A stretch of 51,939 nt of DNA from Chiloscyllium plagiosum (taxonomy: Eukaryota). Location: NCBI RefSeq assembly GCF_004010195.1, contig NC_057739.1, positions 41,771,275-41,823,213 of the forward strand, written 5' to 3'. Made by a program: the position numbers and the translations under genes. Numbering within the stretch: position 1 is the first letter of the stretch; each line of letters opens with the position of its first letter. A model generated the notes under the pieces. The model was not told the DNA's origin. It made no database searches and saw only the letters and a list, made by a program, of their open reading frames with translations. This document shows positions 4,055 through 50,352 of this stretch, piece after piece.

Positions 4055-4695
4055 ACAAAGAACTGCACATGCTGGAAATCATTCAAATTGCTGGAAAAAC
4101 TCCCAGCAGGTCTGGCAGCATCTGTGGAGAGAAGGCAGCGTTAACATTTCAGGTCCAGTGACCAGTCTTCAGAACTGATTGTAGCGAGCACAAGATTGGT
4201 AGATGGGAAAGGGGAGGAGTAAGTGATAGGCAGAGATGCAGACCATGGAGGGAGAACGACAGTTGGACAAAGGTCAGTCGAGGATTATCAATAGCTGCTA
4301 ATGGGGACTGCGACAATGGGTTGAATGTGGTAGCAGCCAATGTGACCTGGAGTGTGGGGTTTGGATTAAGGATATGGGAGAAAGTACTCAAGCCCTAAAA
4401 TTATTGAACTCTATAATCAATTCCTGAAGGCTGTTGGATCCCCAAGCAGAAAATGAAATGCTGTTCTTCCAGGTTGAACTTCGCTTCACTGAAGCACCAC
4501 GGCAAGACAGAGATGTTGGCCAGGGAACATGAAGGTGTGAAGTGACAGGCAACTGGAAGCTCAGGGTCAGTTTTTGAAATCAGAACTTAGGTATTCCGCA
4601 AAGCAGTCACCCAGTTTGTGTACTGTTTCCCCAATGTAGAGGAGACTGCATTTTGAACAGGGACTACAGTAGACTAGATTGAGTCCAGCAATTTT
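4055..4695 (-). mobile_element. Penelope-like element 3' fragment (GIY-YIG remnant plus family C hammerhead)
   Basis: Minus strand gives CSLLYIGET.HKLGDCFAEYL ... FIFCLG.QQPSG. Hammerhead-like GTT CTGAAGA ..GGTC/GACC.. GAAA TGTT AAC at 4175-4140. Confidence 0.8.
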
Positions 4696-5594
4696 TGATT
4701 TTGTTTACAATGAAGGACTCTCATTCTCAACCTCTCCTCTCAACTGAGGCATGGTGACCCTCAGGTTAAACCACCACCAGTCATCTCTTTCTAATGAAAG
4801 AGCAGCCTGTGATTTGGTCGGACTATGGTGACCTTTACCTTGTATCATTCTACATATATGATATGATTATGAACTATTCCATGGTTAACCCTAACTCCCT
4901 CAATGTGTGAATCCAGTGAGGATAGAAGATTGCAAATGTAGTTTCAACCCCTAAATTTTTCCTTTTAAAAAAAGTGCTCACCCCAAATGAAGGCCTGACC
5001 AGGAAATAGTGATACATTGCTTTGCAACAAGTCGTACCTTCTAGGGAAGAAAAACTACCACCTCTTCCTCATCGGGACCTTACATGTTTTGACTGTTTAA
5101 CCTAACTGTTAGACATGCCTTCATCCATAGAAGAATTGTGTATTTAAAAGGAAAAATTAGCTGTCATTTATTGAGGCCAAACCAGGACAAATAATACAGT
5201 GGCTAAAGATATTTCTAGAACGCATGTTGAGGTTACAAAATATTTTCTTTTTTTTTATTAGATTTTGAAATACATAACTAATTATTACATGAATGATTTC
5301 CCCATCCCATTTTGTAGTACCACTGTAATTTATTTGCACCCCACCATAAATTGGAATTTAATCAATACTGGCCTGATACACATAAGCAGCATATTTGACC
5401 TTTTGTGTTAGCTCCTCACTGGAGGAATAAAAAAAAAATCCAAAAGCTTTTCACCCTATGTAGTTTCCTCCATGTCAAATACCTGCATTTTACATCAAAG
5501 ATGTAGCAGTCTCTGCAACGATTGCTACATGACAACGTGGAAACTAACAGCAGCAGGAAGCCATTTGGCCATTTGAGTCTGCTCCACCATGCAA

Positions 5595-5795
5595 TCAGAA
5601 GTCACATGACACCAGGCTATAGTGCAAGAGGTTTATTTAAAATCACAAGCTTTCTGAGCACTGCTGCTTCACCTGATGAAGGAGCCATGCTCTGAAAGCT
5701 TGTGATTTTAAATAAACCTCTTGCACTATAGCCTGGTGTCATGTGACTTCTGACTTTGTCCACCCCAGTCCAACACTGGCATCTCAACATCATCG
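5595..5795. mobile_element. Hairpin PLE mini-element (family B) with hammerhead motif
   Basis: Perfect 60-bp inverted arms 5595-5654 / 5694-5753. Approximate TSD ccatgcaatc/ccattcaatc. Confidence 0.85.
5669..5705 (+). ncRNA. Minimal hammerhead ribozyme motif (family B)
   Basis: TCAC-CTGATGA-A-GGAGC cat GCTCT-GAAA-GC-TT-GTGA: stem I UCAC/GUGA, stem II, palindromic AGCU at stem III. Confidence 0.75.
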
Positions 5796-6365
5796 CCATT
5801 CAATCTGATCATGGCCGCTCCTCTATCTCAACACCATATTTCTGCTTTCTCTTCCGACCCCTTGACACGTTTACCATCTAAAAACGTGTCAATTTCTTTC
5901 TTCAATACACACTCAGGTGACCGGCCTCCACAGGCTTCTGTGGTAGTGAATTCCACAGATTGATCACCCCCACCATGTGAAGAAATGTTTCCTCATCTCA
6001 GCCTAAATGGCTAATCCCCTGGAGACTGTGACCCCTAGCTCTACACTCCCCAACCTGGAGGAGTAAAGTCCCTATATTTAGTCTGTCCATCCTGATTATT
6101 TTATGCAATTTTATCACATTCCCGCTCATTATTTCTAAACTCTGGTAAATACAGGTGCAGTCAAACCAATCTCTCCCACAGGTCAGTCCTGTCATCCACA
6201 ATATCAGCCTAGTGAACCTTGACCACACACCATCTAAGGCAAGCATGTCCTCTCTTAGGCAGAGAGCACAAAACTGCACACAATACTTCATATGCAGTCT
6301 CACCAAGGCCCTGTACAACCATAGTTATACATATCAACTTCTGAACGCAAATGCCTTTGTAAATA

Positions 6366-6923
6366 CTTAGAGATGTACAGCATGGAAACAGACCCTTCGG
6401 TCCAACTCGTTCATGCCGAACAGATATCCCAACCCAATCTAGACCCACCTGCCAACACACGGCGCATATCCCTCCAAACCCTTCCTATTCATATACCCAT
6501 CCAAATGCCTCTTAAATGCTGCAATTGTACCAGCCCTCACCACATCCTCTGGCAGCTCATTCCATAGACGTACCACCCTCTGCGTGAAAAAGTTGCCCCT
6601 TAGGTCTCTTTTATATCTTTCCCCTCTCACGCTAAACCTATGCCCTCTAGTTCTGGACTCCCCGACCACAGGGAAAAGACTTTGTCTATTTACCCTATCC
6701 GTGCCCCTCATAATTTTATAAACCTCTGTAAGGTCACCCCTCAGCCTCCAACGCTCCAGGGAAAACAGCCCCAGCCTGTTCAGCCTCTCCCTATAGCTCA
6801 AATCCTCCAACCCTGGCAACACCCTTGTAAATCTTTTTTGAACCCTTTCAAGTTTCACAACATCTTTCCGATAGGAAGGAGACCAGAATTGCACGCAATA
6901 TTCCAACAGTGGCCTAACCAATG
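6366..6923 (-). mobile_element. Young 5'-truncated CR1 LINE
   Basis: Uninterrupted 160-aa ORF2 C-terminus (VRPLLEYCVQFWSP...RGDL.EVYKIMRG...NFFTQRVVRLWNELP) plus 3' tail. Confidence 0.93.
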
Positions 6924-7835
6924 TGCTTCATCTGCCTGTTTATTTTGCAAAGTATCCCGTACTCCAAAAATCAATGTAAAGGAATTTCTCCTAATTTTCT
7001 TCTCCCTCTTCATAATAACTTTAAAATTGATTAAATTTATCCAGTGCTTCCCCAATGCATGTTATACTAAGCAGCAGCATAATCTGAAAGTCTGTTTGGG
7101 ATAAATGATGAATAGGGAAACAATTCCTGGGTGAGTTATTAAACACAGTAAATAAAACACAGAGCAGCCAGAATTGAGTAGCGTTGCTGTTCTACTTGAA
7201 AAATAAAGTCTGAGTTAATAATTTCAAAATTATCTCAATATTGTATCTCACAATGGTAAAACCAGAATCAAAGTATAACCCAAGAAATAAGTGTTTACAT
7301 ACAGATCTGTAATTTAAAAAAATAAACTTCTAGATTAGTTCAACAAACTTCCCATTTGTAACATGTAGTCATATCAAATGTTCCCATTTACAAGGTGATA
7401 AGAAGAAATGTGCAAACATGAACACTCCGCCAAAAACAGTTTGCATTCCCTGTACCTGTTTATTTCAGTGTCACCATTCTACAGCCCCATTGAGAGCTAT
7501 TCTTTTGTGAAATTAGACCACAACTAAGTTATTAAAGAAAAGCTAAGACAAAAAATTTCAAGAGTGATCACTGGAGTAGATGCACTTTCTCCTTGAACCA
7601 TTTTCCATCATTCAAGTGTAATCTGAATACATTCATTAGTGCAAAATTGCTGTGGACTCAGAGCCACTGGAATCTAGACTAAGGTTGCTGAAACAGGTTT
7701 CATTTTTGATATTTATAAACTAAAAAGGCAAAAGACAGCGAACATAACAATTACAAGCACAAGAAAGAGCCAGATAGACAGTGAGGGACAGAAGAACAGA
7801 AATACATTGAGAGACAAACACATACAAAAAACTGC

Positions 7836-7855
7836 GAGAGAGAGAGAGAGAGAGA
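7836..7855. repeat. (GA)n microsatellite
   Basis: About 10 GA units seen directly. Confidence 0.9.
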
Positions 7856-8517
7856 TGGTGAGGAACAGAGAATTTATCCCATTAATATGCATTACATTTA
7901 GACTCAGGATTTAACTGTGAAAGGGAAACACATTGCCCCAATGCAGAACAGAACCCAACATACAGAAATGGTTCCTAAAAGTCTGATTAAAACCTCATCC
8001 CCATACAACATTAAAACATGACCACCACTTAGTAGTTACTTGTGCAAGACACATGAAACAGACTCCGCAAAGAGTTATTCAGCAAATAACAGCTAAAAAA
8101 ATTACACACTATTTCAGTGCATGGTCAAAGAACATAAGTGAATTTTCGGTTGTAGACTTGGCATGTTGCTATAATTATAATTTTCATTTCCTCTCAAGTA
8201 CTTAGAACATCAGGCTAGTTTTTGGCTCACAACCCTTAAGTTTCATTCAATCAAATGTCAAGTGCAAAGCTCACCATTTATACAAAGATATAAAAATGCC
8301 AAAATAATAGCTTCAGTTTTGCAGTCTTGATTTGTCATAGAAACAGAATGCTTCACACACAAGATGTTAAAAGCTTCAGAAAACTCGGGATCAAGTCTTT
8401 CATTGATGTAAACATTGAAGTGTTCAGCCTGGAGTTCTCCAAATAAATAGGGATTTCATCATTTGATTTTCTTCACTGTAATGCATCATAGGCATTTTAA
8501 AACAAAACAGAAATATT

Positions 8518-8780
8518 CTACAGTTTTGAATCTGCGGCTGTCCAATAATTCACCTTTGCAGCCACAGTTTTGCAGCCCTTGACTGAAAAGACTCTTTGGT
8601 CCTTTGGGAAGTATACCATCTCTTCGGCCACTTTGATGGCTACTTGGTCAACATCTTCAAGATGCCGCGTGTACAATTCAGCTTTTGCACACAACACAAC
8701 GTGCTTATACTCCAGTGGCAGAAAAGGAATAAAATAATCGATCAGATATTTGTCAATGAGACGGGTGTGCCAGAATCCAC
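8518..8780 (-). CDS. TOR1: Torsin-1-like gene B, exon 5 (last)
   Basis: Acceptor tctctgatcacag|GT. Reads (S)GFWHTRLIDKYLIDYFIPFLPLEYKHVVLCAKAEL...VAEEMVYFPKDQRVFSVKGCKTVAAKVNYWTAADSKL*, including the torsin sensor-2 GCK. Confidence 0.96.
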
Positions 8781-9111
8781 CTGTGATCAGAGAAAAATTC
8801 GAAACTCAGTCACATTCATAAAAATGCCTAGGTGCTCAGATTCCGATTAGCATAAACCTTCTAGTTTATCCAGAATAATGCCAAAATAAACAATATGTTA
8901 GAATCATCAAATCTCTATCGTGTGGAAGCAGGCCATTTGGCCCATCAAGTCCACACCTGCAGTAATTTTTAACAAAATTGAAATCATCCAGCATCTTTCA
9001 TCAGATGTCCCAAAGATCTTTATAGCTTATTAACCTTTTTAGAAGTGTGGACTCTATTGTAATGCAGAAAATGCAGCAACCAATTGGAGCACAGTAAGCT
9101 CCCATAAGCAA

Positions 9112-9723
9112 TGTTATGGATCAGATCAGATTCCCTCAAACCAGTTTAAGGAAGTAGCCCAGAAACTAACTTTTCTAGTTGTTTTAAGCAGGTGTAAGTG
9201 GATATTCCGGGAGTGATACAGCCTAATCACTTAGTTTCAAACAAAACAGAATTTATTTGCAGGATTACCAAATTAAACAAACAGAAGAGAACAGAATAAC
9301 TTAACCTGAAAACCTAACAGATTATCCCAACTTAATGATGCTGCTCCAAATATTTGCAACAATCACCATAAACATCCCTTTTCAAAAAATAAGAAAAATC
9401 CAACACAGGGTCTTACAGGAGAGGAAAAGAGATGGCAGTGAGATTCTTCCATGTAGCTGTTTCTTTGACCAGCAGTCTTGAAAAACTGACTAGCAGCTCT
9501 GAACCCAAACCAAACAAGACCAGAGAAAAGCTGAGCTGGGAGAACTGGCCCGTCCCCTTTCATTGTACAAGTCATTTTCTTACAACTTGGTTGTTGACTT
9601 AGGAAACATCTGTAGCCATTATTAAAGTGGCTAGCTCAGACATTTTGGAACCTGTGTCTTTAGACCCCTCAAATAAAAAAAACAAGGACTACATAACCTT
9701 GTTAAAGGAGCAGTACTATCACA
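9112..9723 (-). mobile_element. Probable solo LTR
   Basis: TGTTAT...ATCACA termini, minus-strand AATAAA at ~9253, inserted into an older SINE/L2 fragment. No clear TSD. Confidence 0.5.
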
Positions 9724-11359
9724 TTACATTGCCAACTCTTTTTACTGAAACTGTTGCAGGAATAAATATTACCCCAAACAGCTGCTTTTCTTCAAAATAA
9801 TGAAACTAGAATCTTTAACTTTCATCCATGGGAGCAGACTGGAGCTGTTTCTCACAACTCACCTCTATGATGCCACCTCTGGCAATCCCTCTCTCCCTCA
9901 GAATTGCACCTGGGAGAGTCATCCTAGATTTTGTGTTCAACTATTTGAAACATTTCAACAATCTCCTGACTCAAAAGTGAATATGCTTCCCCCAAGGCAC
10001 AGATGGTAGCAAATGGCAAATATGCACAAGTGAAATATGCATTAAAAATTGTTAAGTAATGGAAATCATGCCATTCACCTTAAATTGGTGTCCTCTGGTT
10101 TTTAACCCTTCCACCAATGGGAATGGCCTCCCTCTGTCTAGTCTGACTTAATCCCTCCAGACTTGAACGCTTATGAATCTTCTCTATGGAGTAGTCCCAG
10201 TTTCTCAAAAAATATCCACATTATGCAACTGTTCTTGTAAATCTGTTCCTCTCCTTTTTGAAAGCCTTCACACCCTTTCTCAAGGACGATGACCGGAACT
10301 GGACACAATACTCATTTGAAACCAAGCCAGTGAAGTTCAGCTTAACCATTACGGTATTTCACAGCATTTTCTACAGTTGCAATTTATTCATTCACTGGGA
10401 TCCACTAACTCCACGTTTTATAGTTTGCTCAATCTGCAATTAAAAATTGAACAAGGATGCTTATACTCACCTTGTGCTCTCATTGTATAACTCAGGAGAC
10501 TGTTCGGTCCATCGTATTTGTCATATCTTCAAAACTATCCTGTCTGCTCTTTCCCTATAGCTCTCAAAAGTAGGCATCCATCATTTGTGAAAATTGTTTG
10601 AAGAGAAATTAAAGCAGCTTTATAGGGAAATGGCGGAGCCTAACTGGATAGATCATTCAATCAGACAGGATATACTGAGCATTCTCCTTCACTGCTTTAA
10701 GATTTTGGAAACGGGTAACATTTTTAAAAATCTTCAGTCAGGTAGATAAGTATATTTAAAACCTGGAAACTTAGTATTCAAATTTTTTCATTTGGATTAT
10801 ATTACTGACAGATTTTTTGCTTTTATGTTCACAAAAATAAGATATGGAAAGGCAGCACTAGAATTTGGAACAATTGGAGAGAATCATTTATGAAATCACT
10901 GGAAGATATAGAATAATTGGAAGGAAATGCTGTAGTTCCACCAAAGCATGGTGAGTTGGAACCATTTCCACCAAAGCTCAAATAAATTCAATGGGATACT
11001 GGTGGGTTGGTGAATCGGTATAAAATTGGCATCATAGAAACAAAGTCACTGTCAACCCTCCATAAGATGTTGGAGCAAAAGCAGGCCATTTGGCCCATTG
11101 AGTCTGCTCCACCATTCAATGAAATCATGCTGATTTGATAATCCTCAACACTACTTTACTTCCTTATCCCCATAAAAGGATTCCCTTAAAAGATTAGAAG
11201 TCTGTCTATCTAAGCCTTGAATATGCTTAGCAACGCAGCCTGGACAGCCCTTTGTAGTAAGGAATTCCACAGATTCACTACCCTGAGAGAAAATAAAGCA
11301 TTATGTCTTTAACAGGCTTTTCCATTCCCAGTTCAAATAAATTCTGAACCAAGACTTAC

Positions 11360-11487
11360 TATTTTTGTTGTTATAGACTTCTAAGGACAGGCTATTCTCC
11401 AAGTCTTTCTGTTGAATATCTTCCCTTTTCATCCCACGCTGCCAGAAATCTAGCACAATATCATTTATCTTCTCACCACCAGCATTG
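11360..11487 (-). CDS. TOR1: Torsin B exon 4
   Basis: tttgagtag|C AAT GCT ... AAT A|GTAAGT, 128 nt. (S)NAGGEKINDIVLDFWQRGMKREDIQQKDLENSLSLEVYNNKN, sensor-1 SN. Confidence 0.96.
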
Positions 11488-17823: not shown

Positions 17824-18461
17824 CTATTTTAAAAACAACCAGAAACAGATAAATACACACACAGGACACATGCAATACACAGCTACAGTCAGAGAAACAG
17901 TACAGCAGCTAAGTGTAAAAGTAATAGGGTCATGATAGTAGGGGATTTCAACCTCCCCAACATTAACTGGGGTAGTCAGTGTGAAAGTTTAGAGCGAGCA
18001 ATATTGTTAAAATGCATCTAGGACAGCTTTTAAAATCAGTAAATGGAAAGCCCTACAAAGGAGGAGGTAGTACTGAACTTAATTTTAAGACAAGAAAGGT
18101 GGGCAAGTGGTTGAAGCATCAATGGGGGAGCATTTTGCAAACAGCGATTATAAATTTGTTCAACTCAAAATTGTTATGGAAAAGAACAAGAACAGACAAG
18201 GGATAAAAATCAAAATCCTCAACTGGGTTCTCACCAATACAACAATTGGTGGATGTTAAATAATGACATAAGAATAGCATTAGATTACAGGAGAATATAC
18301 ACCGGCCGGTCAGATGGGCCAATCAATGGAAAACAGAATTCAATCCGGATAAATGTGAGCTGATGCATTTGGGCAGAACAAACAATGAATGTTACGACAC
18401 TGAGAAGCACTGAAGATCAGAGGGACATAGGTGTACATGTCCAACAGTTCCTTATGGTATC

Positions 18462-18551
18462 CTGAAGAAGGGCTTATGCCCGAAACGTCGATTCTCCTAT
18501 TCCTTGGATGCTGCCTGACCTGCTGCGCTTTTCCAGCAACACATTTTCAGC
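18462..18551 (+). mobile_element. 90-nt PLE mini-element (family A) beginning at the hammerhead core
   Basis: CTGAAGA-A-GGGC ttat GCCC-GAAA-CG-TC. 12-bp TSD ccttatggtatc at 18450-18461 and 18552-18563. Confidence 0.88.
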
Positions 18552-19580: not shown

Positions 19581-21220
19581 CTGGATGTAGGTTTGCTTGC
19601 TGAGCTGAAAGATTAGTTTTCAGACATTTCTTCACCATACCAGATAACATCTTCAGTGAGCCCCGGATGAAGCACTGGTGGTGTAGTCCACTTTCTATTT
19701 ATGGGTTTGGGTTTCCATGGGTTGGTGATGCCATTTCCTGTGGTGCCATCATTTCCTATGGTGATGACATTTCCTGTTCTTTTTCTCAGGGGGGTGGTAA
19801 ATGGGGTCTAACTCGATGTGTTTGTTGATAGAGTTCCGGTTGGAATGCCATGCTTCTCGGAATTCTCGTGCGTGTCTCTGTTTGGCTTGTCCTGGGATGG
19901 ATGTATTGTCCCAGTCAAAGTGATATTCTTTCTCATCGGTATGCAAGGATACTAGTGAAAGTGGGTCATGTCTTTTTGTAGCTAATTGATGCACATATAT
20001 CCTGGTGACTAGTGTTCTGCCAGTTTGTTCAATGTTGTGTTTGTTACAGTATTTGCAACAACAAAACCTACAGACAAACCAACAGAACACCCACAGGACC
20101 TCGGATATTAGGGTTCTTAACAGAGGCACGAACAAACAGCTCTGGCAAACATCCAACACAAACTTTGGGTCCGCTATGTGGATGACACCTTTGTCAACAC
20201 TAAACAAAACAAATTAGAGGAAACCTTCAAGACCATCAATAATACCCTTACTGGCATAAAATTCACTAAAGAGGAGAAAAACAACAATAAGCTGCCACTC
20301 TGAGATGTCACATTAGAGTGACCAGCCAATGGGGAACTTCAAACCAGCATCTACAAGAAAACAACACAAACAGACCAAATATTGAATTACAGAAGCAATC
20401 ATCCCATCACCCAGAAATGAACCTGCATTAGAACATTATTTCAACGAGCCACCACACAATGCAGCACAGAGAAGCTAAGAAGAGCAGAGGAAAATCAACT
20501 ATACAGTGTATTCAAAAAGAATGGGTACCCAATGAACACAGTCCGCCGATTTCTCAGCAACAAACCCAAACAAGCAGACAAAACACATCCAGAAACCCTA
20601 GCCACCCTCCCCTACATCAAAGACATCTCAGAAATGACTGTCAGACTACTCAGACCCCTTGGCATCATGGTAGCGCACAAACCCACCAACACGCTAAAAC
20701 AGCAGCTAATGAAGTTGAAAGACCCTATACAGACAACAAACAAAACTAATGTCATTTACAAAATACCTTGCAAAAACTGTAACAAACACTACATTGGACA
20801 AACAGGCAGAAAACTAGCCACCAAAATACATGATCAACTAGCCACAAAAAGACATGACCCATTCTCACTAAAGTATCCTTACATACAGATGGGGAAGGAC
20901 ACCACTTTGACTGGAACACATCTATCCTAGGACAAGTCAAACAGAGACATGGCATTCCAACTGGAACGCTATCAACTAACACATTGACTTAGATCCCATT
21001 TACCACCCCCTGAGAAAAAGAACAGGAAATGATATCACCACCCCAAGGAAACCCAAACATATAAACAGAAAGTAGGCTATACCACCAGTGCTTCAGCTGG
21101 AGGCTCACTGGAGAGGTTACCTAGTATGGCGATGAAACGTCTGAAAATGAACTTTCAGCTCAGCGAGCAAGCCTAAATCCAGAACTTCAAACTGAGCTAC
21201 AAATCTTCTCAAAACTTGCT
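19581..21220 (+). mobile_element. Penelope-like element (Poseidon-like) with an inverted copy of its 3' end
   Basis: RT RYVDDT, GIY-YIG VIYKIPCKNCNKHYIGQTGRKL. 19581-20056 is the inverted 3' end. 12-bp TSD agagtcaaggat (19569-80, 21221-32). Hammerhead motifs at 21105-21144(+) and 19620-19659(-). Confidence 0.92.
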
Positions 21221-22705: not shown

Positions 22706-22861
22706 GGAGAAAGTGAGGTCTGCAGATGCTGGAGATCAAAGTTGAAACTTTATTGCTGGAACCGCTCATTCCTGAAGAAGGGCCTGTGCCCGAAACGTCG
22801 AATCTCCTGTTCCCTGGATGCTGCCTGACCTGCTGTGCTGTTCCAGCAATAAAGTTTCAAC
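22706..22861. mobile_element. Partly inverted PLE mini-element (family A)
   Basis: 14-bp TSD tatctaattgcaga, inverted arms gttgaaactttattgctggaa / ttccagcaataaagtttcaac. Confidence 0.88.
22768..22803 (+). ncRNA. Minimal hammerhead ribozyme motif (family A, best copy)
   Basis: ATTC-CTGAAGA-A-GGGC ctgt GCCC-GAAA-CG-TC-GAAT: stem I AUUC/GAAU, stem II GGGC/GCCC, ACGU palindrome, GUC site after 22799. Confidence 0.8.
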
Positions 22862-24714: not shown

Positions 24715-26225
24715 GAGTCAGCAATCGTTTCATGACACCAAAATTGAGTTTAACCAATTTATAGGATTTCTTTCAAGGAGCTGAGGATGAAAGGGAACTG
24801 GCATATGTACTGTACTTGGATTTCCAGAGCCATTTAATAAGATGTAACATCAAAGGTTATTGCAAAAAATAAAAGCTTATGGTGTAAGGCTTATCAATTA
24901 GCCTGGATAGAAGATTGCATTAGATTGGTTCTGGAAAAGCACTGCAGGTCAGGCAGCATCCGAGGAGTAGGAAAAATCGACGTTTCGGGCAAAAGCCCTG
25001 CATCAGGAATCTATTGTTTTTACCTGGATAGAAGATTGCTTTATACCAACTAGACAAGAGAGTATGCATTAATGAGTCTTTGTCTGATTGACAGGATGTG
25101 GCCAGTTGAGTCCTGCAGGGGTCTGTGCTGGGTCTCAATGTTTTATAATTTATGTCAATGCCTTAGATAAATGTAGTAAACGCATTCAAGCTACCTTTGC
25201 AAACAACACAAAGATTAGTGAGAAGCTCTGTGTGAAGGAGACACAAGGACTTTACAGAAAGAATTAGATAGGTTGAGTGAATAGGCAAAAATCTGGCATG
25301 ATGTAAAGAAATCAGAAGTTCTTCCCTTTGGCAGGAGTCATAGAATTTACACCATAGAAACAGACCCTTCATCCATGTCAACCAGGTATTCCAAATTAAT
25401 CTACTCCCATTTGCCAGCATTTGACCCATATCCCTCTTAAACCCTTCCTATTCATACATGCATCCGGATGCCTTTTAAATGTTGTAATTGTGCCACTTCC
25501 TCTGGCAGCTCATTCCATAACGTGCCACTCTCTGTGTGAAAATGTTACCTCTCAGGTCCCTTTCAAATTTTTTTCCCCTCTCACCTTAAACCTTTATCTC
25601 TAATTTTGAACTCCCCCAACCTGAGGAAAATACCTTGTCTATTTACCCTATCCATGCCCCTCATACTTTTATATACCTCTATAAGGTCACCCCTCATCCT
25701 CTGATGCTTGAGGGAAAATAGCCCCAGCCTATTCAGCCTCTCCTTATAGTTCAAACCCTCCAATTGTGGTAATTCTTGTAAATCTTTTCTGAACCATTTA
25801 AAGTTTAGCATCATCCTTCCTATAAGCAGGGAGACCAGGTAGAATTTTAAAAAAACAAAATATTACTTAAAAGGAGAATGACTGCAGAGTTTTGAGGTGC
25901 AGAGGGATTTCAATGTTCTGGAGAATGAGTCACAAAGTTTGTGTGCAGTTACAGTGCATATTCAAGGAGCTGAATGGAGAATGTGGTGCTGGAAACGTAC
26001 AGCAGGTCAAGCACCATCTAAGGAGCAGGGGGATCGATATTTTGGTCATAAGCCTTTTATCAGGAATCTGATTACGCCCGAAACATCGATTCTCCTACTC
26101 CTTGATAATGCCTGACCTGGTATACTTTTCCAGCACCACACTCTCGACTCTGATCTCCAGCATCTGCAGTCCTCACTTTCTTCAAGGAGCTGAATGGTCT
26201 ACTTCTGCTCCTAATTTGTATGTTC
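24715..26225 (+). mobile_element. Old CR1/L2 fragment with nested insertions (PLE minis at 24920-25022 and 25978-26180, minus-strand CR1 tail at 25337-25818)
   Basis: LYLDFQ, V(P)QGSVLG remnants. 17-bp TSDs cctggatagaagattgc and ttcaaggagctgaatgg. RGDLIEVYKSMRG on minus strand. Confidence 0.8.
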
Positions 26226-27206
26226 ACATTTTGAGACAATCAAGAGAAGACAGAATGGTTTCAGCATAGAAGAAGGCCATTCACTCCACTCCCCATGCTG
26301 GCTGTCTTGATCCACTCCCTTCCCATTTCTCCACATGCAAGTTTTCCTCATTTAGATCTGTATCCAATTCCTTTTTGAAAGTTATTATTGAATCTGCTTC
26401 CGTTGGTCTTTCACTGGTGTATATTCCAAATCATGACGACAACTTCTGGGCTTTGTGATAGTAAAAAGGGAGCATTACATCCCTGCAACAAAACAAAATT
26501 AGGATGAAAAATGTCCACTTTTTAACAGCAGCTGTGTCCAGCAGGTGGATGGAATGACAGTCATCTGTGCACAAATGCTCAGCAAAAAAGCTTTAATTAA
26601 TCTTATTCACAGAATACTGCTAAGTACAATCACATTTGTAGCAGCCAATTCACAAATAGCAATAAGATCAATAACCAAAATTTTGTGGCTTAATACAGGT
26701 TTGAGGGAGAAGTAATGGTTAGGTCAGTGCCAGATTGCCCTGTTGTTCTTCAAATAGTGCAATAGGATCTTCTACCCTAAGTTCTCCTGAGAGGGCAAGT
26801 TGGAAGACAGCAGCTTGTACAGTGCAGCAACTCACTCAGTATTGCAAGGAAAGGTCCTGAAGTAATCCACTTAAGAGTTGTGTCATGTGCACAAATCTAA
26901 GTACCAATCCAACCTAAGTCAATTAAACTGTGTAGTTTTAGTCATAAGCTGTGAGTTAATGTCCACGGTTAGGAAAACAGACACAGCCCCACTATTTTGC
27001 TGGTTAATGTGCTCAATTGTCTGAAGTGGTGCTTGAACCCATGACTCTCTGATTCTGAGCCAAGCAGTTAAAACACTGCTCTTTCTGGTCAGAATTCTAT
27101 TCTTTAAATTGGTCTGAGAATCTTCAATAAGTGTCAATTACCAGGGAAACAGGAGTTTAATGCTTCACTCATTCAGATGCAGACCTGATTTTCAGGTGAA
27201 GGCATC

Positions 27207-27436
27207 AAAATTAGAGTGGTGCTGGAGAAGCACAGCAGGTCAGGCAGCATCTGAGGGGCAGGAAGGAAAAAAGATGTTTTGGGCAAAAGACCTTCATCAG
27301 GAGGGTTTCTGGTGAAGGGCTTTTGCCCAAAACATAGATTTCCCTGCTTCTTGGATGCTGCCTGACCTGCTGTGCTTCTCCAGCACCACTCTAATCTTGA
27401 CACTGGTCTCCAGCATCTGCAGTACCAACTTCCATC
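27207..27436. mobile_element. Hairpin PLE mini-element (family A)
   Basis: 17-bp TSD tttcaggtgaaggcatc. Inverted arms pivot at two decayed back-to-back hammerhead cores (~27300). Confidence 0.85.
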
Positions 27437-28041: not shown

Positions 28042-28142
28042 GGAGAAAGTGAGGACTGCAGATGCTGGAGATCAGAGCTGAAATCAGGCAGCATCCAAGG
28101 AGCAGGAGAATCGACGTTTCGGGCATGAGCCCTTCTTCAGGA
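28042..28142 (-). mobile_element. 101-nt PLE mini-element (family A)
   Basis: TSD aaggatat(g/a)gcta. Minus strand starts TC-CTGAAGA-A-GGGC tcat GCCC-GAAACGTC-GA. Confidence 0.88.
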
Positions 28143-28514
28143 AAGGATATAGCTATACCTGTTCCTTAAACAACTCAATTGGTGATGCATTTTTGGCTGT
28201 ACAGCAGCAATGCAATCCACATTTACACAAGCCTCGAAGCAAGGAGTTTTTTCTCCCCTTTGGAGACTGTTACAGGAATTAGATATTGCAGTGAAATCAT
28301 CATTATCTATTCTGCTCAGGGATGGCTGGTGTGGGCTAATAAAAATATTGCAGTACTGACTCCTATCAATCTTAGTTTACACCTTATTTTTTCATTCTAT
28401 CTTAAATTCCTCAAAATGGAAGTTTAAAAGGTCACAAGTTGAAATATTGGGATCTGAAACTCAGTAGCTACTGTGGAACTCCAACCAAGTTATAAGAGCT
28501 TTGCTTCTTCTCAC

Positions 28515-29245: not shown

Positions 29246-29345
29246 AGTTCTGAGGAAGGGTCACTTGACCCAAAACGTTAACTCAGATCTCTCTCCACAG
29301 ATGCTGCCAGATCTGATGAGCTTCACCAGCAATTTCTGTTTTTGC
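29246..29345 (+). mobile_element. PLE mini-element (family C) with hammerhead motif
   Basis: AGTT-CTGAGGA-A-GGGTCA ct TGACCC-AAAA-CG-TT-AACT. G12 mutated to A (CpG decay), stem I AGUU/AACU. Confidence 0.75.
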
Positions 29346-30674: not shown

Positions 30675-31285
30675 TAAAAATTCATTCACAGGATGTTGGT
30701 TTCGCTGGCCAAGCCAGCATTTTTTCCCATTCCTAATTTCCCAGAGGGAAGTTAAGAGTCAAATTGTTATGGATCTGGAGTCACATGTCGGCCAGACTGA
30801 GTAAAGGTGGCAGTTTCCTTTACCAAAGAACTTTCATAAAGACAAACCCAGGTTTTTCCTGACAATCAGCAATGGTTTCATGGTCATCATTAGACACTTA
30901 ATTCCAGATCTTTTATTGAATTCAGATTCTACAATCTGCTATAGTGGGATTTAAACCAGGTCCCCAGAATATCGCCTGGGTCTATGGATTAATATCTGGA
31001 TTAATGGTGCTGGAAGAGTTCAGGCAGCATCTAAGGAGCAGCGAAATCGACATTTCGGGCAAAAGCCCTTCATCAGGAATAAAGGCAGAGAGCCTGAAGT
31101 GAGGAGAGATAAGCTAGAGGAGGGTGGGAGTGGGGGGAAATGAGGAAACTGTTGAAGTCCACATTGATGCCCTGGGGTTGAAGTGTTCCGAGGCGGAAGA
31201 TGAGGCGTTCTTCCTACAGGCGTCTGGTGGTGACCTCTATATGGATTAATAGTCTAGCAATAATACCATTAGGCCGTTACATCCC
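30675..31285 (-). mobile_element. tRNA-headed SINE containing a family A PLE fragment (30995-31238)
   Basis: Same SINE family as 37500-38060, 49295-49645, 49900-50165. Insert has TSD tatggattaata and a minus-strand CTGATGA-A-GGGC/GCCC-GAAA motif. Confidence 0.8.
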
Positions 31286-38729: not shown

Positions 38730-40202
38730 GGAAGAAAGTGAGGTCTGCAGATGCTGGAGATCAGAGCTGAAAATGTGTTGCTGGAAAAGCGCAGCAGGTC
38801 AGGCAGCATCCAGGGAACAGGAGAATCGACGTTTCGGGCATAAACCCTTCTTCAGGAATGAGGAAAGTTTGTCCAGCAGGCTGAGATAAAAGGTAGGGAG
38901 GAGGGACTTGGGGGAGGGGCGTCGGAAATGTGATAGGTGGAAAGAGGTCAAGGTGAGGGTGATAGGTCAGACGGGAGTGGGGGCGGAGAGGTCGGGAAGA
39001 AGATTGCAGGTTAGGAAGGCGGTGCTGAGTTCGATGGATTTGACTGANNNNNNNNNNNNNNNNNNNNNNNNNNNNNNNNNNNNNNNNNNNNNNNNNNNNN
39101 NNNNNNNNNNNNNNNNNNNNNNNNNNNNNNNNNNNNNNNNNNNNNNNNNNNNNNNNNNNNNNNNNNNNNNNNNNNNNNNNNNNNNNNNNNNNNNNNNNNN
39201 NNNNNNNNNNNNNNNNNNNNNNNNNNNNNNNNNNNNNNNNNNNNNNNNNNNNNNNNNNNNNNNNNNNNNNNNNNNNNNNNNNNNNNNNNNNNNNNNNNNN
39301 NNNNNNNNNNNNNNNNNNNNNNNNNNNNNNNNNNNNNNNNNNNNNNNNNNNNNNNNNNNNNNNNNNNNNNNNNNNNNNNNNNNNNNNNNNNNNNNNNNNN
39401 NNNNNNNNNNNNNNNNNNNNNNNNNNNNNNNNNNNNNNNNNNNNNNNNNNNNNNNNNNNNNNNNNNNNNNNNNNNNNNNNNNNNNNNNNNNNNNNNNNNN
39501 NNNNNNNNNNNNNNNNNNNNNNNNNNNNNNNNNNNNNNNNNNNNNNNNNNNNNNNNNNNNNNNNNNNNNNNNNNNNNNNNNNNNNNNNNNNNNNNNNNNN
39601 NNNNNNNNNNNNNNNNNNNNNNNNNNNNNNNNNNNNNNNNNNNNNNNNNNNNNNNNNNNNNNNNNNNNNNNNNNNNNNNNNNNNNNNNNNNNNNNNNNNN
39701 NNNNNNNNNNNNNNNNNNNNNNNNNNNNNNNNNNNNNNNNNNNNNNNNNNNNNNNNNNNNNNNNNNNNNNNNNNNNNNNNNNNNNNNNNNNNNNNNNNNN
39801 NNNNNNNGAGGTGATGAGGTTATGGATGGTCTGGGAGATGATGGTTTGGTGGTGGGGGGTGGGGTCATGGTCAAGGGGGCAGTAGGAGGAGGTATCTGCG
39901 AGCTGGCGTTTGGCCTCAGCGGTGTAAAGGTCGGTGCGCCAAACTACTACCGCGCCTCCCTTGTCTGCTGGTTTGATAGTGAGTTTGGGGTTGCAACGGA
40001 GGGAGTGCAGTGCTGCGCGTTCCGAGGGTGAGAGGTTGGAGTGGGTGAGAGGGGTGGGGGAGTTCAGGTGGCGGTTAATATCGCGGCGGCAGTTGCCTAT
40101 GAAGAGGTCGGGGGCAGGTAGGAGGCCAGCACGGGGTGTCCAGGTGGATGGGGTGTGTTGGAGGCGTGAGAAGGGGTCGTCAGAGGGTGGGCGAGAGGGG
40201 TT
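38730..40202 (-). mobile_element. Young Penelope-like element (family A parent) spanning the assembly gap
   Basis: SNLSPSERAALHSL...IKPADKGGAVVVW (PLE DKG motif) right of the gap. 3' end with intact core ATTC-CTGAAGA-A-GGGT ttat GCCC-GAAACGTC left of the gap. Inserted in a CR1 fragment (38240-40680). Confidence 0.85.
39048..39807. other. Assembly gap (760 N)
   Basis: Run of n. Confidence 1.
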
Positions 40203-41371: not shown

Positions 41372-41580
41372 GGGAGAAAGTGAGGACTGCAGGTGCTGAA
41401 GATCAGAGTCAAGAGTGTGGTGCTGGAAAAGCGCAGCAGGTCAGGCAGCATCCGAGGAGCAGAAGAATTGACGTTTCGGGTATAAGCCCTTCATCAGAAT
41501 GAAGGGCTTACGCCAGAAGCATCAATTCTCTTCAGATGCTGTCTGACCTGCTGTGCTTTTCCAGCACTACACTCTCGAGT
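41372..41580. mobile_element. Hairpin PLE mini-element (family A)
   Basis: Arms pivot at agcccttcatcag|aatgaagggct. Minus arm keeps CTGATGA-A-GGG..CCC-GAAACGTC. Confidence 0.85.
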
Positions 41581-41611: not shown

Positions 41612-41960
41612 ACAGCATGATGGCTCAGTGGTTAGCTCTGCTGCCTCACAGTGCCAGAGACCCAGGTTTGATTCCAGCCTCAGGTGACTGTCTGTGTGGA
41701 GTTTGCACATTTTCCCCATACCTGCGTGGGTTTCCTCTGCATGCTCTCATTTCCTCCCACAGTCCAAAGATGTGCAGGTTAGGTGGATTGGCTATGCTAA
41801 ATTGCCTATAGTTCACAGGATGTGTAGGCTAAGTGGATTAGCCAGGGGAAATGCAGGGCTACATAGATAAGGGAGGTCTGGGTGGGATGCACGTTGGAGG
41901 ATCATTGGGGACTTGGTGGGCCAAATGGCCTGCTTCCACTCTGGAGGGAGTCTATGAGTG
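41612..41960 (+). mobile_element. HE1/V-SINE-type SINE
   Basis: A/B-box head, V domain and CR1-like tail. Confidence 0.9.
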
Positions 41961-42594: not shown

Positions 42595-43670
42595 CAGGCT
42601 CACGTTCCATAGAATTTAGAAGGTTAAGGGGAGATTTGAACAAAGTTCATGAGGTGTTAAAGGAAACAGATCGGGTCAATAAGAAAGCTGCTATTTCCAC
42701 TGGTTTGGACAGGGGATTGGGATCTTGGATAAGGAGGGGTCAGAGTCTAAAACTTCGAGTCAGATCTCTTTGTAGTGAAATGAGGAAACATTGACACACA
42801 AAGTATAGACTGGTTAAGCTGAATGGCCTACTCTGTGCAATATATCCGACGTAATCGTTTGCAGTCTTAGCACTGTGAGTACAAACTGTATTCTCCAGCA
42901 ACTAACAGTAAGATTTGAGCTATAAAAATCAATAACATGCCAAGAAAGATTGAGTCATTATCACTTGTCCATACAATGGCAGTTTAGGAGTATTCTCACT
43001 GAAGCTGTAGCAAGAATTGTAATTGGATGTCAGTACAATTACAACATTTAGATGGATACATGAATAGGAAAGATTTGGAGGGATATGGACTAGGAGCAGG
43101 CAGGTAGATTCAGTTTAGTTTGGGATTATGTTCGGCACGGACTGGTTGGACCAAAGGGTCTGTTTCCCAGCTGTGTGACTCTATGTACTTGAGAGGGTAA
43201 CAAGGCAATTTATAAAGATGTTGTCAGGTTTGGAAAATTGCAACTATGAAGGAAGACTGGATAGGCTGGGGTTGTTCCTGTACAGAGGAAACTGTGGGGA
43301 AATTTGATTGAGATGCACAAAATCGAGAGAAGCCTGGATAGAGGGAATGGAAAAGGCTTATTTAGCTAAGCAAGAAGATCAGTAAATAGGGGACAATGAT
43401 TCAAAGTGATTGGTAGATTAGTGAGGAGATGAGGTACAGATTTATACCCAGACTGTGGTAGGAGTTTGGAATGCAATGTCTGAAAATGGAGTGAAGGCAG
43501 AAACCCTCGGCTCCTTTAAAGGTGTCTAGATTTGAACCTGAAGTTCCATAACTTCCAAGACGAAATGCTGGAAAGTGTGATTAGGCTGCTTAACATGTCT
43601 TGTTTTTCAGCAGTCACAGGCAAGATGGGCGAAGTGGCCTCTTTCTGGTTCATAAACCTTTTACAATTCT
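42595..43670 (+). mobile_element. Cluster of CR1/L2 3' fragments
   Basis: RRLRGDL..V, LDGYMNRKDLEGYG and tail motifs. Confidence 0.7.
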
Positions 43671-43851
43671 ACGAAGAATGCAGTGGTATTAAACAAAGTA
43701 TAGTTAGGTCAGGAATCTCAGGGCATGTTTCTGAGGTACTTTCTTGAAGCTTGAATTGTAGTTAGCTGTGCTTAATGTAGCAATTGTCAAAGGTGAATTT
43801 TGTGTCTGCAACAATAGCTGCCTTTATCACCTTCTTTCACACTTGTAACAA

Positions 43852-44025
43852 AGATGTGAAGGAGCTGATGTTGGACTGGGGTGGACAAAGTTAAAAATCA
43901 CACAACACCAGGTTATAGCCCAACAGGTTTGTTTGAAAGTACAAGCTTTTGGAGCGCTGAAAAAGCTTGTATTTTCAAATAAAACTGTTGCACTATAACG
44001 TGGTGCTGTGTGATTTTTAACTTCT
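43852..44025. mobile_element. Hairpin PLE mini-element (family B), core collapsed
   Basis: agttaaaaatcacac / gtgtgatttttaact arms around aagcttttggagcgctgaaaaagctt. Confidence 0.78.
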
Positions 44026-44236
44026 AACAAAGTCAAATGTCCCAAGATGCTTCGGCATGTTACATTTCATAACAAAACACAAAATGGCCAAAGTTCCCAA
44101 CCCTATAAACAAATCTGCAGTACACTTAATCATGTTATAATAGACTGCCACTGAAAGGGCTAACACAACAATATCAGAATAAAGCACACAGTTAGAAGCA
44201 TTTTAAGTTATCAGTCCTTAGATATGAAAGCTTGAC

Positions 44237-44369
44237 CTTTTATATCCAGTGCTATCCAATTGTCGTCACAGTCCTCGCATTTGGTGTAATTAATGTACTT
44301 GTTCAGTAGCAATCCCAGTACGCATGCTGTGACACTTATAATAACCAAGGGGACGTGTTGGCTTGCCAT
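44237..44369 (-). CDS. TOR1: Torsin C first coding exon
   Basis: GAC ATG G context with an upstream in-frame TAG. MASQHVPLVIISVTACVLGLLLNKYINYTKCEDCDDNWIALDIK, 133 nt, phase-1 donor AAAG|GTCAAG. WIALDIK|G parallels torsin B WVPLDVK|G. Confidence 0.82.
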
Positions 44370-44784: not shown

Positions 44785-45345
44785 GTCAAACAGTGTGGTG
44801 CTGGAAAAGCACAGCCGGTCAGGCAGCACCTGAGGAGCAGGAGTCAACGTTTCAAACTTAAGCTCTTCATCAGGAATGAGGGGGTGGTCCAAAGGGGCTG
44901 AGAGATAAATGGGAGAGGGGTGGGGCTGGGGCTAAGGCAGCTGGTAATGCAATTGGTAAATGAAGGTAGGGGGTGAAGGTGATCGGTCGGAGAGGGGGGT
45001 AGAGCGGATAGGTGGAGAGGAAGATAGACAGGTCAAGAGGACAGTGCTGAGTTGGAAGGTTGGGGGGGGTGGGGAAATGAGGAAACTGGTGAAATCCACA
45101 TTGATCCTGTGTGGCTGGAGGGTCCCAAGGCAGAAGATGAGGCGTTCTTCCTCCACGTGACGGGTGGTAAGGATTTGGGGTAGAGGAGGCCCAGGACCAG
45201 CATGTCCTTGGCGGAGTGGGAGGGGGAGTTAAAGTACTTGGCCATGGGGTTGGTGGGGCTGTTTTGTACATGTGTCCTGAAGATGTTCTCTGAAGCATTC
45301 CTGTTGCTCCCAATGTGGTCTCCTCTACATTGTGGAGACAGGACG
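44785..45345 (-). mobile_element. Penelope-like 3' fragment (family A, GIY-YIG C-terminus)
   Basis: EEERLIFCLGTLQPHRINVDF, with a decayed hammerhead at ~44845-44878. Confidence 0.82.
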
Positions 45346-45359
45346 CTTACTTGCAGAAA

Positions 45360-45633
45360 GCTTCAGAGAACATCTCGGGGACATAAACCCAAAACTAACA
45401 TGATCATTCTAAAAGATGAAAGACTTAAGCTAAATTTGTTTAATATTACATTCCATGACACTGCAATCCTGTTGCTATAAAGTCTGCATCTTATGATTCT
45501 GCTCCACAACCACCTGATTAAGAAGCAGCGCTTCAAAAGCTAGTGCTTCCGATTAAACCTGTTGGACTATAACCTGATATTGTGTGATTTTTAAGTTTGT
45601 ACACCCCAGTCCAACACTGGCACCTCCACATCA
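45360..45633 (+). mobile_element. PLE 3' end (family B) with decayed hammerhead
   Basis: CAC-CTGATTA-A-GAAGC agc GCTTC-AAAA-GC-TA-GTG at ~45511-45545. Confidence 0.72.
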
Positions 45634-47220: not shown

Positions 47221-48774
47221 GTTTTCTTTAATTCCATCATCAGCTATTTGGGAAGTCATTTGTCAATTAAATCCCCACTCAGACATTTTATTAATGCCAT
47301 TGTGTTTGATCACAGAATGAGCTGGACATTCCCACCTTGGTCTTTTGATGGGCACCATGAGCAGATTTACCTCGTTAAAATGCATTAGTGAATGAGATGG
47401 GCTTTTACAATAATAGTTTTGTTATGTCATTACTGAGATTAGTTTTCAATTCCATACTTAAATTGATCAATTTTAGTTAAAGTCAAATTCCACCAGTGGG
47501 ATTTGAATCTATGTTTCTAAGGTGTTAACCTGGGTGTCTGGATTACTAATCCAGTGACATGTTGGATACAAGAGAAGGCTGAGGACAGGAAGCATGCTTG
47601 CACTCTGGTCACTGTCCTTTGATGTACACATTGCAATTTATTTTCATCTTGTTTCAACCCTGTGTTGTGTATGAACCCACTGGATTGCAGACACTGTGCA
47701 GTACTGATATTACTGCTAAACTTTCTCCCATTAATAACTCAACTGACCTCCTTCGCTGGTTGCCAACTGTGTTGCTGTCCACTTATACAAGCCACCTCCA
47801 AGAAAACCAGAAGTTGGAAACAGATCTGCATTATCATCTTACTTCCTTTGTTCTAATTTTCCCAACTTCACCCTCTCCGCTTCCAAATCTACTTCCCGGG
47901 AAAAATATCCCTATCAACCCCACCACGCATAGGTCTGATTCCACATTCCTAATTCTTAGATGCAAATTGTGAATAAAGAGGGACAGTCATCATAATCCTA
48001 CCAGATTAGAGGGCTTTTCTGTCATTAAAGAGATGTAACTACTTTAATCTGAGGGTTACTACTCCTCAGACAAGGGGAGAGAGTGAGGAGAGTTCTTCAG
48101 CTGGCGTGGGAATTGAACCCACACAATTAGCGTCACTCTTCATCACCATCCAAACAACTAAGCCAACTGACAGTCACCTTAGTACTGATTCCTGAGGAAC
48201 AGCACTTATGCCAGTCAGTAATAGCCCCCATCCAGTCTGTTTCTAGCTAGCTTTCTGACTTCCATTCTCTGATTTTAGTGATAAGTCTTAGGTATGGTAT
48301 CTTTTCAAACCTGTAAACATGACGTATCTAATACATTAACAAACTCAGAGAATGCTGGAGAAAATTCGGCTGGTATGGCAGCATCTGTGAAGAGAAATCT
48401 GAAGAACAGTCATGATGAGCTGCCAGAGGAGGTGGTGGAGCTTGGTATAGTAGCAGCACTTTAAAGGTATATGAATAGGAAGGCTTTAGAGTGATATGGG
48501 CCAAATGCTGGTAAATGGGACTAGATTAATTTCTGATATCTGGTCAGCATGGATGAGTTGGATGGAAGGGTCTGTTTCTGTGCTGTACATCCCTATGACC
48601 CAATATTTAATTCAGATTTCTAGCATCCATAGTAATTTGCATCTTATTAGTTGATGAACCGCACCTATTTTTTTCTGAAACCTCTTCAATGAAATCAGTA
48701 AGATTCTTAAAACCTGACGTCTCCATTGGTAATCTGCCAATAAGTCAATCACAGATATTTTCCTAATCAATCTG

Positions 48775-49070
48775 TTCAGAGATCATTAAATCCCTACAGT
48801 GTGGAAACAGTCCATTCAAACCCAGGAAGTTCTGAACGACTCTCCAATGAGCAGCCCACCCAGACTCACCCTATCTCTTGAAATCCTGCATTTCCCATGG
48901 CCAATTCATCTAACCTGCATATGGACTGTGAGAGGGAACCAGAGCACCAAGAGCAAACCTACATAGACTTGGGAGAATATACAAACTCCCCACAGACAAT
49001 CACACAAGGCTTGGATTGAACCCAGGTCCCTGAAGCTGTGAGGCAGTAGTGCTAACCGCTGAGCTACCAT
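48775..49070 (-). mobile_element. HE1/V-SINE-type SINE
   Basis: Reverse complement of the 41612 family. Confidence 0.85.
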
Positions 49071-49294
49071 GACATTTTATGACACAATGTTAAAGCAGTT
49101 GGGACTTGAACCTGAGCTTCTGGGCTCAGAGGTAGAGAGATGACCGCTGTGTCACAAAAGCCCATAAAACAAACTGCTGAAGACTTGCACAACAATTGGC
49201 TGTAAAAGACAAATCTATTGTTTGGTTTCTCCTAGTGATACATGAAACATGTCAATGGGGGCAGACACCCACAGGTTCAGTCCCTCTTCTTTAT

Positions 49295-49645
49295 TTATTT
49301 CATTCATGGGGTGAGGGCATCACTGGCTAGGCAACATTTATTGCCTATCCCTAGTTGCCCAGGGGGCAGTTAACAGTCAACCACATTACTGTGTATCTGG
49401 AGTCACATGAAGGCCAGACCAGGGTAAGGATGGTAGTTTCCTTCCCTAAAGGACATTAGTGAATCAGATGGGGTTTTCCGACAGTCAATTCATGGTCATC
49501 ATTAGATTTTTAATTCCAGATATTTTATTGAATTCAAGTTTCACCATCTGCTGTGGCAGGATTTGAACCTGGATCCCCAGAATATTATCTGGGTCTCTGG
49601 ATTAACAGTGCAGCAATAATATCACGAGGTCATTGCCTCCCCTTC
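49295..49645 (-). mobile_element. Full-length tRNA-headed SINE with L2-like tail
   Basis: Minus head GGGGAGGCAATGACC..., B box GGTTCAAATCC, tail ATGAATGAAATAAA. Second copy at 49900-50165. Confidence 0.8.
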
Positions 49646-50166
49646 TGACAATTGACTACAGAATCGAGGCTGGTGCTGCAGTGCAGACACTGAGGGAATG
49701 TCGCACTGTCAAATGAGACACTGTCAACCAAGGCCACACTGGGCAGATGGAAAAGCTCCCAATTAGATTTGAAGTGGATGATAGAATGATAGGGTGGCAC
49801 AGTAGCTCAGTGGTTAGCACTGCTGCTTCACAGCTCAGGGATTGGCATATTGATCCCACAAACAAATCTAGTCAGTACTTTACGTGGCTTGCTTTTCTTT
49901 TATCTACTCACAGGATGTGGGCATCTCTAGCTAAACCAGCATTTATTATCCATTGCCCAGAGAGCAATTGTGGATCTGGAGTCACATGCAAGTCAGACCA
50001 GGCAAGAATGGCAAATTTCCACCCCTAAAAGGCATTAGTAAACCAGATGGGGTTTTCCAACAATCACTTCATGGTCATTGTTCAACTCTTAATTCCAGAT
50101 GCTTATTGAATTCAAGTTCCACCACCTGCCATTGTGGGATTTGAACGCAGGTCCTCAGAACATTAG

Positions 50167-50259
50167 AGCTGAAAATGTGTTGCTGGAAAAGCGCAGCAGG
50201 TCAGGCAGCATCCAAGGAGCAGGAGAATCGACGTTTCGGGCATGAGCCCTTCTTCAGGA
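50167..50259 (-). mobile_element. 93-nt PLE mini-element (family A)
   Basis: 10-bp TSD agaacattag. Minus strand starts TC-CTGAAGA-A-GGGC tcat GCCC-GAAACGTC. Confidence 0.88.
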
Positions 50260-50312
50260 AGAACATTAGCCAAGTTGTTGTGGTTCTGTTCGCCGAGCAG
50301 GGAATTTGTGTT

Positions 50313-50352
50313 GCAGACGTTTCATCCCCTGTCTAGGTGACATCCTCAGTGC
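50313..50352 (-). ncRNA. Minimal hammerhead ribozyme motif (family D)
   Basis: GCA-CTGAGGA-T-GTCACC tagaca GGGGAT-GAAA-CG-TC-TGC, stem I GCA/UGC. Confidence 0.75.

Follow-up and report, generated by a model that had tools for sequence, protein, structure and literature searches.

Abundant minimal type-I hammerhead motifs of probable Penelope-like origin in the genome of Chiloscyllium plagiosum

Four families of minimal hammerhead motif

Minimal hammerhead ribozymes of metazoan Penelope-like elements (PLEs) are inactive as monomers and weakly active as dimers, and in fish they occur in Xena, Poseidon and Neptune elements (Cervera and de la Pena 2014, PMC4209133). Here, we analyze a 51,939-nucleotide stretch of the Chiloscyllium plagiosum genome (RefSeq assembly GCF_004010195.1, contig NC_057739.1, positions 41,771,275 to 41,823,213 of the forward strand; hereafter the window) that carries many copies of such motifs, in four families that we term A to D. 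Like the motifs described in PMC4209133, they combine a type-I core without helix III with an extra base between positions 9 and 10.1, a G10.1-C11.1 pair and a palindromic 15.2-16.2 step; as in that report, one genome holds several consensus families with compensatory changes, and most copies stand alone or close to one on the opposite strand and derive from truncated elements. The feature list matches the published one point for point, so motifs of this kind are already described; what is new here is the comparison of four families, a parent for family B, the contrast with family D, whose copies show no pile-up of 5' ends, and a test based on CpG positions. We consider it probable (about 0.85) that the motifs are minimal type-I hammerheads of the pseudo-long terminal repeats (pLTRs) of four endonuclease-bearing Penelope-like families, and that the dispersed copies are neutral by-products, a reading carried by the motif's position behind an open reading frame (ORF), bimodal 3' ends, target-site duplications, head-to-head pairs and family-specific paired stems.

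Two other systems bear close comparison. The Poseidon element of Anolis carolinensis, PAc, likewise has its hammerhead in the pLTR (Frangieh et al. 2024, PMC11167929); family D appears to belong to the same clade type, and A and C to be Neptune-type. The PAc ribozyme is protein-assisted in vitro (PMC11167929), whereas the shark motifs are known from sequence alone. The second is the group of non-LTR retrozymes, which are also short type-I hammerhead repeats without coding sequence, present in very large numbers and linked to Penelope elements (PMC7229834; Li et al. 2026, 10.64898/2026.07.22.740005). As described there, however, retrozymes are tandem units of 170-400 bases with canonical hammerheads and circular RNAs, whereas the shark copies are dispersed or inverted pLTR ends with minimal hammerheads.

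Allowing at most six mismatches to a family motif, with 11 core letters scored, the window holds 24 minimal type-I hammerhead copies (A 14, B 5, C 2, D 3), in line with the roughly 20 copies in 52 kb claimed by an earlier note on this DNA; all 11 letters are intact in 12 of the 24, and 9 keep the palindrome as well. The shared frame that the note had read is upheld, in the form stemI-CUGANGA-N-stemII-GAAA-SS-UH-stemI'. All six sequences it quoted are present where it placed them, but three retain the core and three, at 29246, 4140 and 21105, have decayed core letters (AAAA for GAAA, UGUU for CGUU, and CUGGAGA). A strict descriptor (the core, CG or GC at 15.2/16.2, at least three pairs in stem II and at least two in stem I) finds 9 matches in the window, while neither the reversed window nor any of 100 dinucleotide-shuffled versions gives one. 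An Rfam scan to E=10 gave 10 weak matches, with no hammerhead among them.

The families fill the same paired positions with different bases. Since a MAFFT alignment of 11 representatives put family B one column off, pairs were instead counted in 173 matches anchored on the core, 86 of them unselected by family pattern; only one unselected match belongs to family C, whose pairs come from selected copies and the consensus. The first pair of stem I is C-G in A and B, U-A in C and A-U in D; the second is U-A in A and C, A-U in B and C-G in D. Within family D, the third stem I pair varies among G-C, C-G and U-A, and the third stem II pair between C-G and U-A. Helix II forms four pairs in A (at 0.96-0.98 of 50 matches) and five in B (0.76-1.0 of 25), and in D five of six positions pair at 0.89-1.0 of nine matches, the closing pair being G-U in six of the nine. 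Helix I has four pairs in C and three in each of B and D; in A it mostly has two, a U.U and one more, with four in 19%, compared with four to five in the first described families. The note's statement that the helices are always paired therefore does not hold: the third stem I pair of A is U.U in 30 of 50 unselected matches, the AUUC/GAAU form makes up 12,427 of 64,742 exact A copies, and stem II of D1 has an A.G mismatch. Its other structural claims fared better, with an extra base after A9 that is A in 49 of 50 family A and 25 of 25 family B matches and U in all nine of D, and, in place of a stem III, a four-nucleotide palindrome that reads ACGU in A, C and D and AGCU in B. When positions 15.2 and 16.2 were left free as C or G, all 86 unselected matches carried CG or GC, as copies of few masters rather than independent cases. 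In a classical hammerhead dimer, each stem I is built from two copies, one giving its 5' strand and the other its 3' strand; because the stems differ between families, dimers would be restricted to one family.

Copies picked by their downstream part only give majority consensuses that keep the whole core in every family (A n=79, B n=42, C 27 rows, D 15 rows). Flank identity between families is 0.40-0.53, the level of random 60-mers (0.50), with the exception of A and C downstream (0.71-0.73), two families that appear from their sequence to be related. That families whose flanks are unrelated nevertheless keep the palindrome, the two stems and all 11 scored catalytic letters argues against a non-catalytic protein-binding or promoter signal that merely resembles a hammerhead. 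Such a signal would suit the motif's overlap with the presumed start region considered below, and in the anole system cutting is dispensable for insertion in vitro and RNA-seq contains no cut ends; yet the anole motif is able to cut, and its cutting depends on the core (PMC11167929), and we regard this explanation as highly improbable.

All four families sit behind sequence that reads as GIY-YIG-like coding sequence. An endonuclease profile built from the last 150 residues of 18 full-length relatives matches upstream of the hammerheads in long copies, by 225-231 bases in A, 281 in C, 167-258 in D and 649-689 in B. The B matches, from loci L076 and L032, indicate that B too is a Penelope-like family, and its long 3' untranslated region contains a CA-rich tract. 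Coding parents of A, C and D lie inside the window, as the note had said. That of A is the DKG region of a putative Penelope-like reverse transcriptase (RT) ORF at 39813..40196 (-), which an assembly gap (Ns) separates from the 3' end of the long element, where an A hammerhead with intact core lies sense to a torsin intron (38824..38859, -). Endonuclease C-terminal sequence also stands ahead of the A hammerhead at 44842..44877 (-; core intact, stem II decayed), at about 44990-45270 (-) and with an inverted GIY piece nearby at 45302-45391 (+); another C-terminal piece (31151-31240) is near the A hammerhead at 31045..31080 (-), which has lost C15.2. For C, the candidate parent is a broken GIY-YIG endonuclease piece at 4400..4683 (-; 4576-4683 at iE 4.2e-7), and the hammerhead at 4140..4175 (-) has lost C15.2. 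Family D has an apparent RT thumb and GIY-YIG region without the cysteine linker at 20121..20930 (+) with a hammerhead at 21105..21144 (+; one core change), an inverted arm with an endonuclease piece (19752-20063, -) and a hammerhead lacking C15.2 (19620..19659, -), and, read by eye from the translation, an endonuclease C-terminal piece at 50400..50599 (-) with an intact-core hammerhead at 50313..50352 (-).

A single linker motif suggests where these families belong. Relatives of the A DKG piece, the closest named ones from Chiloscyllium punctatum (83-91%), are RVT_1 plus GIY-YIG proteins with a CX2-5CxxC linker in 19 of the 21 long ones. One A-linked copy (L025) has this linker, family C aligns to the linker region (L078), and family D runs from thumb to GIY without it (window 20421-20930). 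The linker is absent from Penelope/Poseidon, and Nematis also has a linker (PMC8557442). With the linker in A, the C alignment and none in D, families A and C are therefore probably Neptune-type and D Poseidon-type, B being unplaced, these labels coming from one motif in pieces of elements. Pfam finds RVT_1 in family D (E 3e-11) and GIY-YIG weakly in one family A piece (E 0.12), and a Pfam scan of four PLE pieces gave no match.

Ends of the copies and a model for their origin

Copies for end mapping were chosen by the stretch from +55 to +75, counted from C3, with pattern-selected centres excluded. Their 3' ends are bimodal and 30-40 bases apart, at about +85 and +125 in A and B and +75 and +110 in D. 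A Penelope tail with two internal reverse-transcription starts 30-40 bases apart is described for PAc (PMC11167929), and the shark ends match these two starts behind the hammerhead. Most copies of A, B and C are stubs of about 100-135 bases, and about half of the A copies are units of 95-135 bases with a common start and two ends. Target-site duplications flank several copies, such as one of 12 bases at 18462, in the A hammerhead at 18458..18493 (+; core intact) that heads a stub of about 95 bases, and one of 10 bases at the A stub of 50226..50261 (-; core intact).

The 5' ends fall within -12..+1 in 92 of 195 A copies, 24 of 64 B and 20 of 52 C (binomial p 7e-35, 1e-8 and 1e-5) and in none of 16 D (A versus D, Fisher p 1.5e-7), a pile-up at stem I of which the accessible text of PMC4209133 makes no mention. 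We rejected a cluster at the cut site, where 8 of 195 A ends fall against about 8.6 expected from an even spread of the 66 in +2..+55. A splice acceptor as the cause of the boundary was also rejected, as AG occurs there only in C and flanks differ between copies. Around -4, family A reads TCATTCC or TTATTCC and family C TCAGTTC, which fits the initiator consensus YYANWYY.

We tentatively propose, at somewhat less than even odds, that Neptune-type RNA begins at the first base of stem I, at the initiator-like -4, and that an internal reverse-transcription start mass-produces stubs of 100-135 bases, leaving about one intact core per 16 kb. If true, this core density would be above any figure given in the cited literature as available to us, and the ribozyme would act on the element's own capped leader, with the family-specific stem I limiting dimers to the same family. 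Penelope of D. virilis (Schostak et al. 2008, PMC2377424) and the Penelopes of Adineta vaga (PMC3846280) offer precedents for the parts of this scheme, an internal pLTR promoter with an initiator, a tail, an inverted pLTR and target-site duplications, each of them inferred or seen here. In D. virilis, however, 46 bases separate the start from an intron, and it is the end of this intron that meets helix I (PMC2377424), whereas the shark RNA would start at stem I itself. A competing account of the pile-up, possible if on balance doubtful, is the chemistry of insertion, with the 5' ends set where the polymerase halts, where fold-back priming occurs or where the endonuclease nicks the ATT that precedes the core. 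In its favour, the Poseidon protein of the anole makes nicks at ATT close to the ORF-pLTR junction of its own element, and does so on both strands (PMC11167929); family A has ATT at -4; of 195 A junctions, 66 fall within +2..+55; and head-to-head junctions are common. Families B and C nevertheless pile up at the same place without ATT, a polymerase coming from the 3' side would have to pass through the whole structure before it reached the boundary at the 5' side, and D, equally structured, shows no pile-up.

Scattered copies are solo or head-to-head. Within 400 bases, the 139 A copies have 25 head-to-head, 4 direct and 3 tail-to-tail neighbours, and the 33 B copies 10, 1 and 0. The head-to-head pairs fit the priming on both target strands seen with PAc, and the scarcity of direct neighbours, together with the lack of an Rfam hammerhead, led us to reject identity with non-LTR retrozymes. 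The rarity of direct tandem arrays likewise speaks against the idea that the stubs are non-autonomous elements of a SINE- or retrozyme-like type that propagate themselves, each with an internal promoter of its own and copied from another stub by Penelope protein. The uniform A units with several target-site duplications would suit such elements, as would the internal promoter of D. virilis Penelope (PMC2377424) and the derivation of retrozymes from pLTRs (10.64898/2026.07.22.740005); but each of the stub subfamilies that we checked also includes long copies that share its hammerhead variant and are preceded by coding sequence, and flanks at the junctions differ from copy to copy. We think self-propagation unlikely.

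We instead favour pLTR hammerheads whose dispersed copies are by-products, and propose that only the few master elements maintain the motif. In these, the motif would bring about a slow cleavage of the tandem precursor RNA, either in a dimer joined by the ACGU or AGCU palindrome or with the help of the element's protein. Reverse transcription would begin inside the tail, 85-130 bases behind the core, so that every insertion, however short, carries a hammerhead. In A, B and C, copying would often stop at the front of stem I, most likely since the template RNA begins there, which would set an upper limit on stub length. Hundreds of thousands of dispersed copies would thus be by-products, decaying neutrally once inserted, with the quickest losses at the CpG sites of G12 and of the palindrome.

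Abundance and fate of the inserted copies

Across the 3.556 Gb searched, the bare core, with no pairing asked, has 220,032 matches against 5,215 in the reversed control, about 60 per Mb after control, which bears out the earlier claim that such motifs are extremely abundant in this genome. The first 100 of the listed matches are, by eye, almost all A, B or D. Exact narrow patterns number 64,742 for A, 12,661 for B, 232 for C and 6,511 for D, with none in any reversed control. A sample of 612,557 non-N bases picked by location, which takes in the window and its neighbours together with a dense part of C1 and several spaced stretches, contains 54 bare cores. The scale is unlike that of the genomes in PMC4209133, with about 9,000 minimal motifs in Xenopus and about 4,000 in coelacanth; axolotl, a far larger genome, has 126,247 canonical type-I motifs (PMC7229834), and all three comparisons are rough because the descriptors differ. 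These data support the view that minimal type-I hammerheads of apparent Penelope-like terminal repeats are extremely abundant here, but abundance does not equal activity.

Decay of the inserted copies bears on that distinction. G12 is the general base (PMC6155905), and of the two strands of one CpG, G12A is predicted to be lethal and C11.1U to be mild, leaving a G.U pair. Among otherwise exact A motifs the two changes are equally frequent (5,377 and 5,346), which argues that the motif matters little once inserted. Core CpG decays like other CpG (A 17.9 versus 17.3%; B 31 versus 31%), while non-CpG core letters decay slightly less than non-core letters (A 3.8% versus 5.2%; B 4.6% versus 7.4%), and inserted copies appear to decay like neutral DNA. 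This tells against dispersed copies as active ribozymes that act on host RNAs under selection for or against them. What would favour such a role is the sheer number of core matches, reads of the motif in both orientations in a poly(A) run, 94% of which continue into unlike flanks, and intact sense copies in torsin introns (38855 and 41497; intact antisense copies lie at 18462 and 22772). Solo minimal motifs, however, are uncut in vitro (PMC4209133), and in a head-to-head pair the two copies are complementary to each other, which would mask the motif; a host role for the dispersed copies is in our judgement very improbable indeed. The RNA data come from one single-cell poly(A) run with 2,033 reads aligned. 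On one A copy, 87 reads change over to unlike sequence at position 38859; this position corresponds to A(-4), where stem I begins.

Several observations weigh against the interpretation of these motifs as pLTR hammerheads, or against parts of it. Folding of single motifs showed no gain over shuffles in 10 of 10 cases (z -1.3 to +0.3), and for this reason the case for hammerheads rests on motif and covariation; poor single folding and the absent Rfam match would both be expected of motifs without helix III. In all five cases modelled, the cofold minimum is 5-10 kcal/mol more stable than the hammerhead dimer, and the commonest A form has only two Watson-Crick pairs beside the core before the U.U. 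The 5' ends at the front of stem I point to the RNA start only indirectly, their placement by alignment carries an uncertainty of about 5 bases, and family B fits the initiator consensus poorly. The clade labels derive from a single motif. Finally, the poly(A) run, a weak test because its library is unsuited to mapping ends, shows no listed pile of read starts or ends and no depth step at the cut site; PAc, too, has no RNA-seq ends at its cut site (PMC11167929).

Remaining features of the window and outlook

Other hammerheads of the window range from intact to much decayed. The A copy at 22768..22803 (+) is intact and of the subfamily with a 4-bp stem I; with C3 at 22772, its cut is predicted after 22799, as the note had placed it. 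Further A copies with intact cores lie at 28109..28144 (-) and, as one arm of a head-to-head pair, at 41466..41501 (-). The A copies at 28084-28143 and 50201-50260, 22 kb apart, are identical over 60 bases and so very young. The A stub of 50226..50261 immediately follows a family D copy at its 3' end (window 50226-50352, -), and other mixed-family neighbours are B behind D in L095 and an A pair behind C in L063. Four decayed A motifs lie in 24975..27340 (C3 near 25006-, 26063-, 27300- and 27309+), and the census adds two more at 38524+ and 41496+. The B hammerhead at 5669..5705 (+) has an intact core and the AGCU palindrome and forms the right arm of a 160-base fold-back (5595-5753); that at 45510..45546 (+), the copy near 45514, has two core changes, and other decayed B motifs have C3 at 5675-, 23962- and 28631- in the census. 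The C hammerhead at 29246..29283 (+) is predicted dead by its G12 to A change. Sequences at 27789 (+), 37858-37953 (+) and 48344-48437 (-) are older remnants that resemble C but have a longer stem II; they may form a fifth subfamily.

Three torsin-family genes lie in tandem on the minus strand, at 29695-44336, 8503-23618 and 42-224, the last continuing into L011/L010; they share four matching exons each, and Pfam Torsin matches one exon at E 3e-33. Truncated LINE 3' ends, which we take to be CR1-like, occupy 6368-6927, 12029-12408, 15702-16513 (RVT_1 E 1e-14 at 15702), 21594-22353, 1236-1934 and 25525-25732. A SINE-like family is found at 3562-3689, 41609-41812, 48971-49071 and 50626-50918, the last with an internal 90-base duplication. 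In other loci, a 339-codon frame (L002:135-1151, -) reads by eye like the RT connection and RNase H of a retrovirus or LTR element, and a 662-codon open frame (L129:7291-9276, +) resembles, likewise by eye, a host exon for glucosidase I. Long minisatellite arrays in L133, L136 and L144 yield open frames of 400-1,400 codons.

Neither the literature nor the searchable part of the PMC4209133 supplement gave a shark report of such hammerheads, in a search outside which most subscription journals and Repbase/Dfam lay. The known link between ribozymes and retroelements is here extended to a shark-like genome at unusual scale. Published accounts leave open what role Penelope hammerheads play (PMC8557442, PMC11167929). 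This genome makes that role testable, since it offers four naturally occurring variants, a large number of long open frames and young junctions in the tens of thousands; the points in question are where the RNA starts, whether dimers are family-specific, and whether the host is affected by the motif at all.

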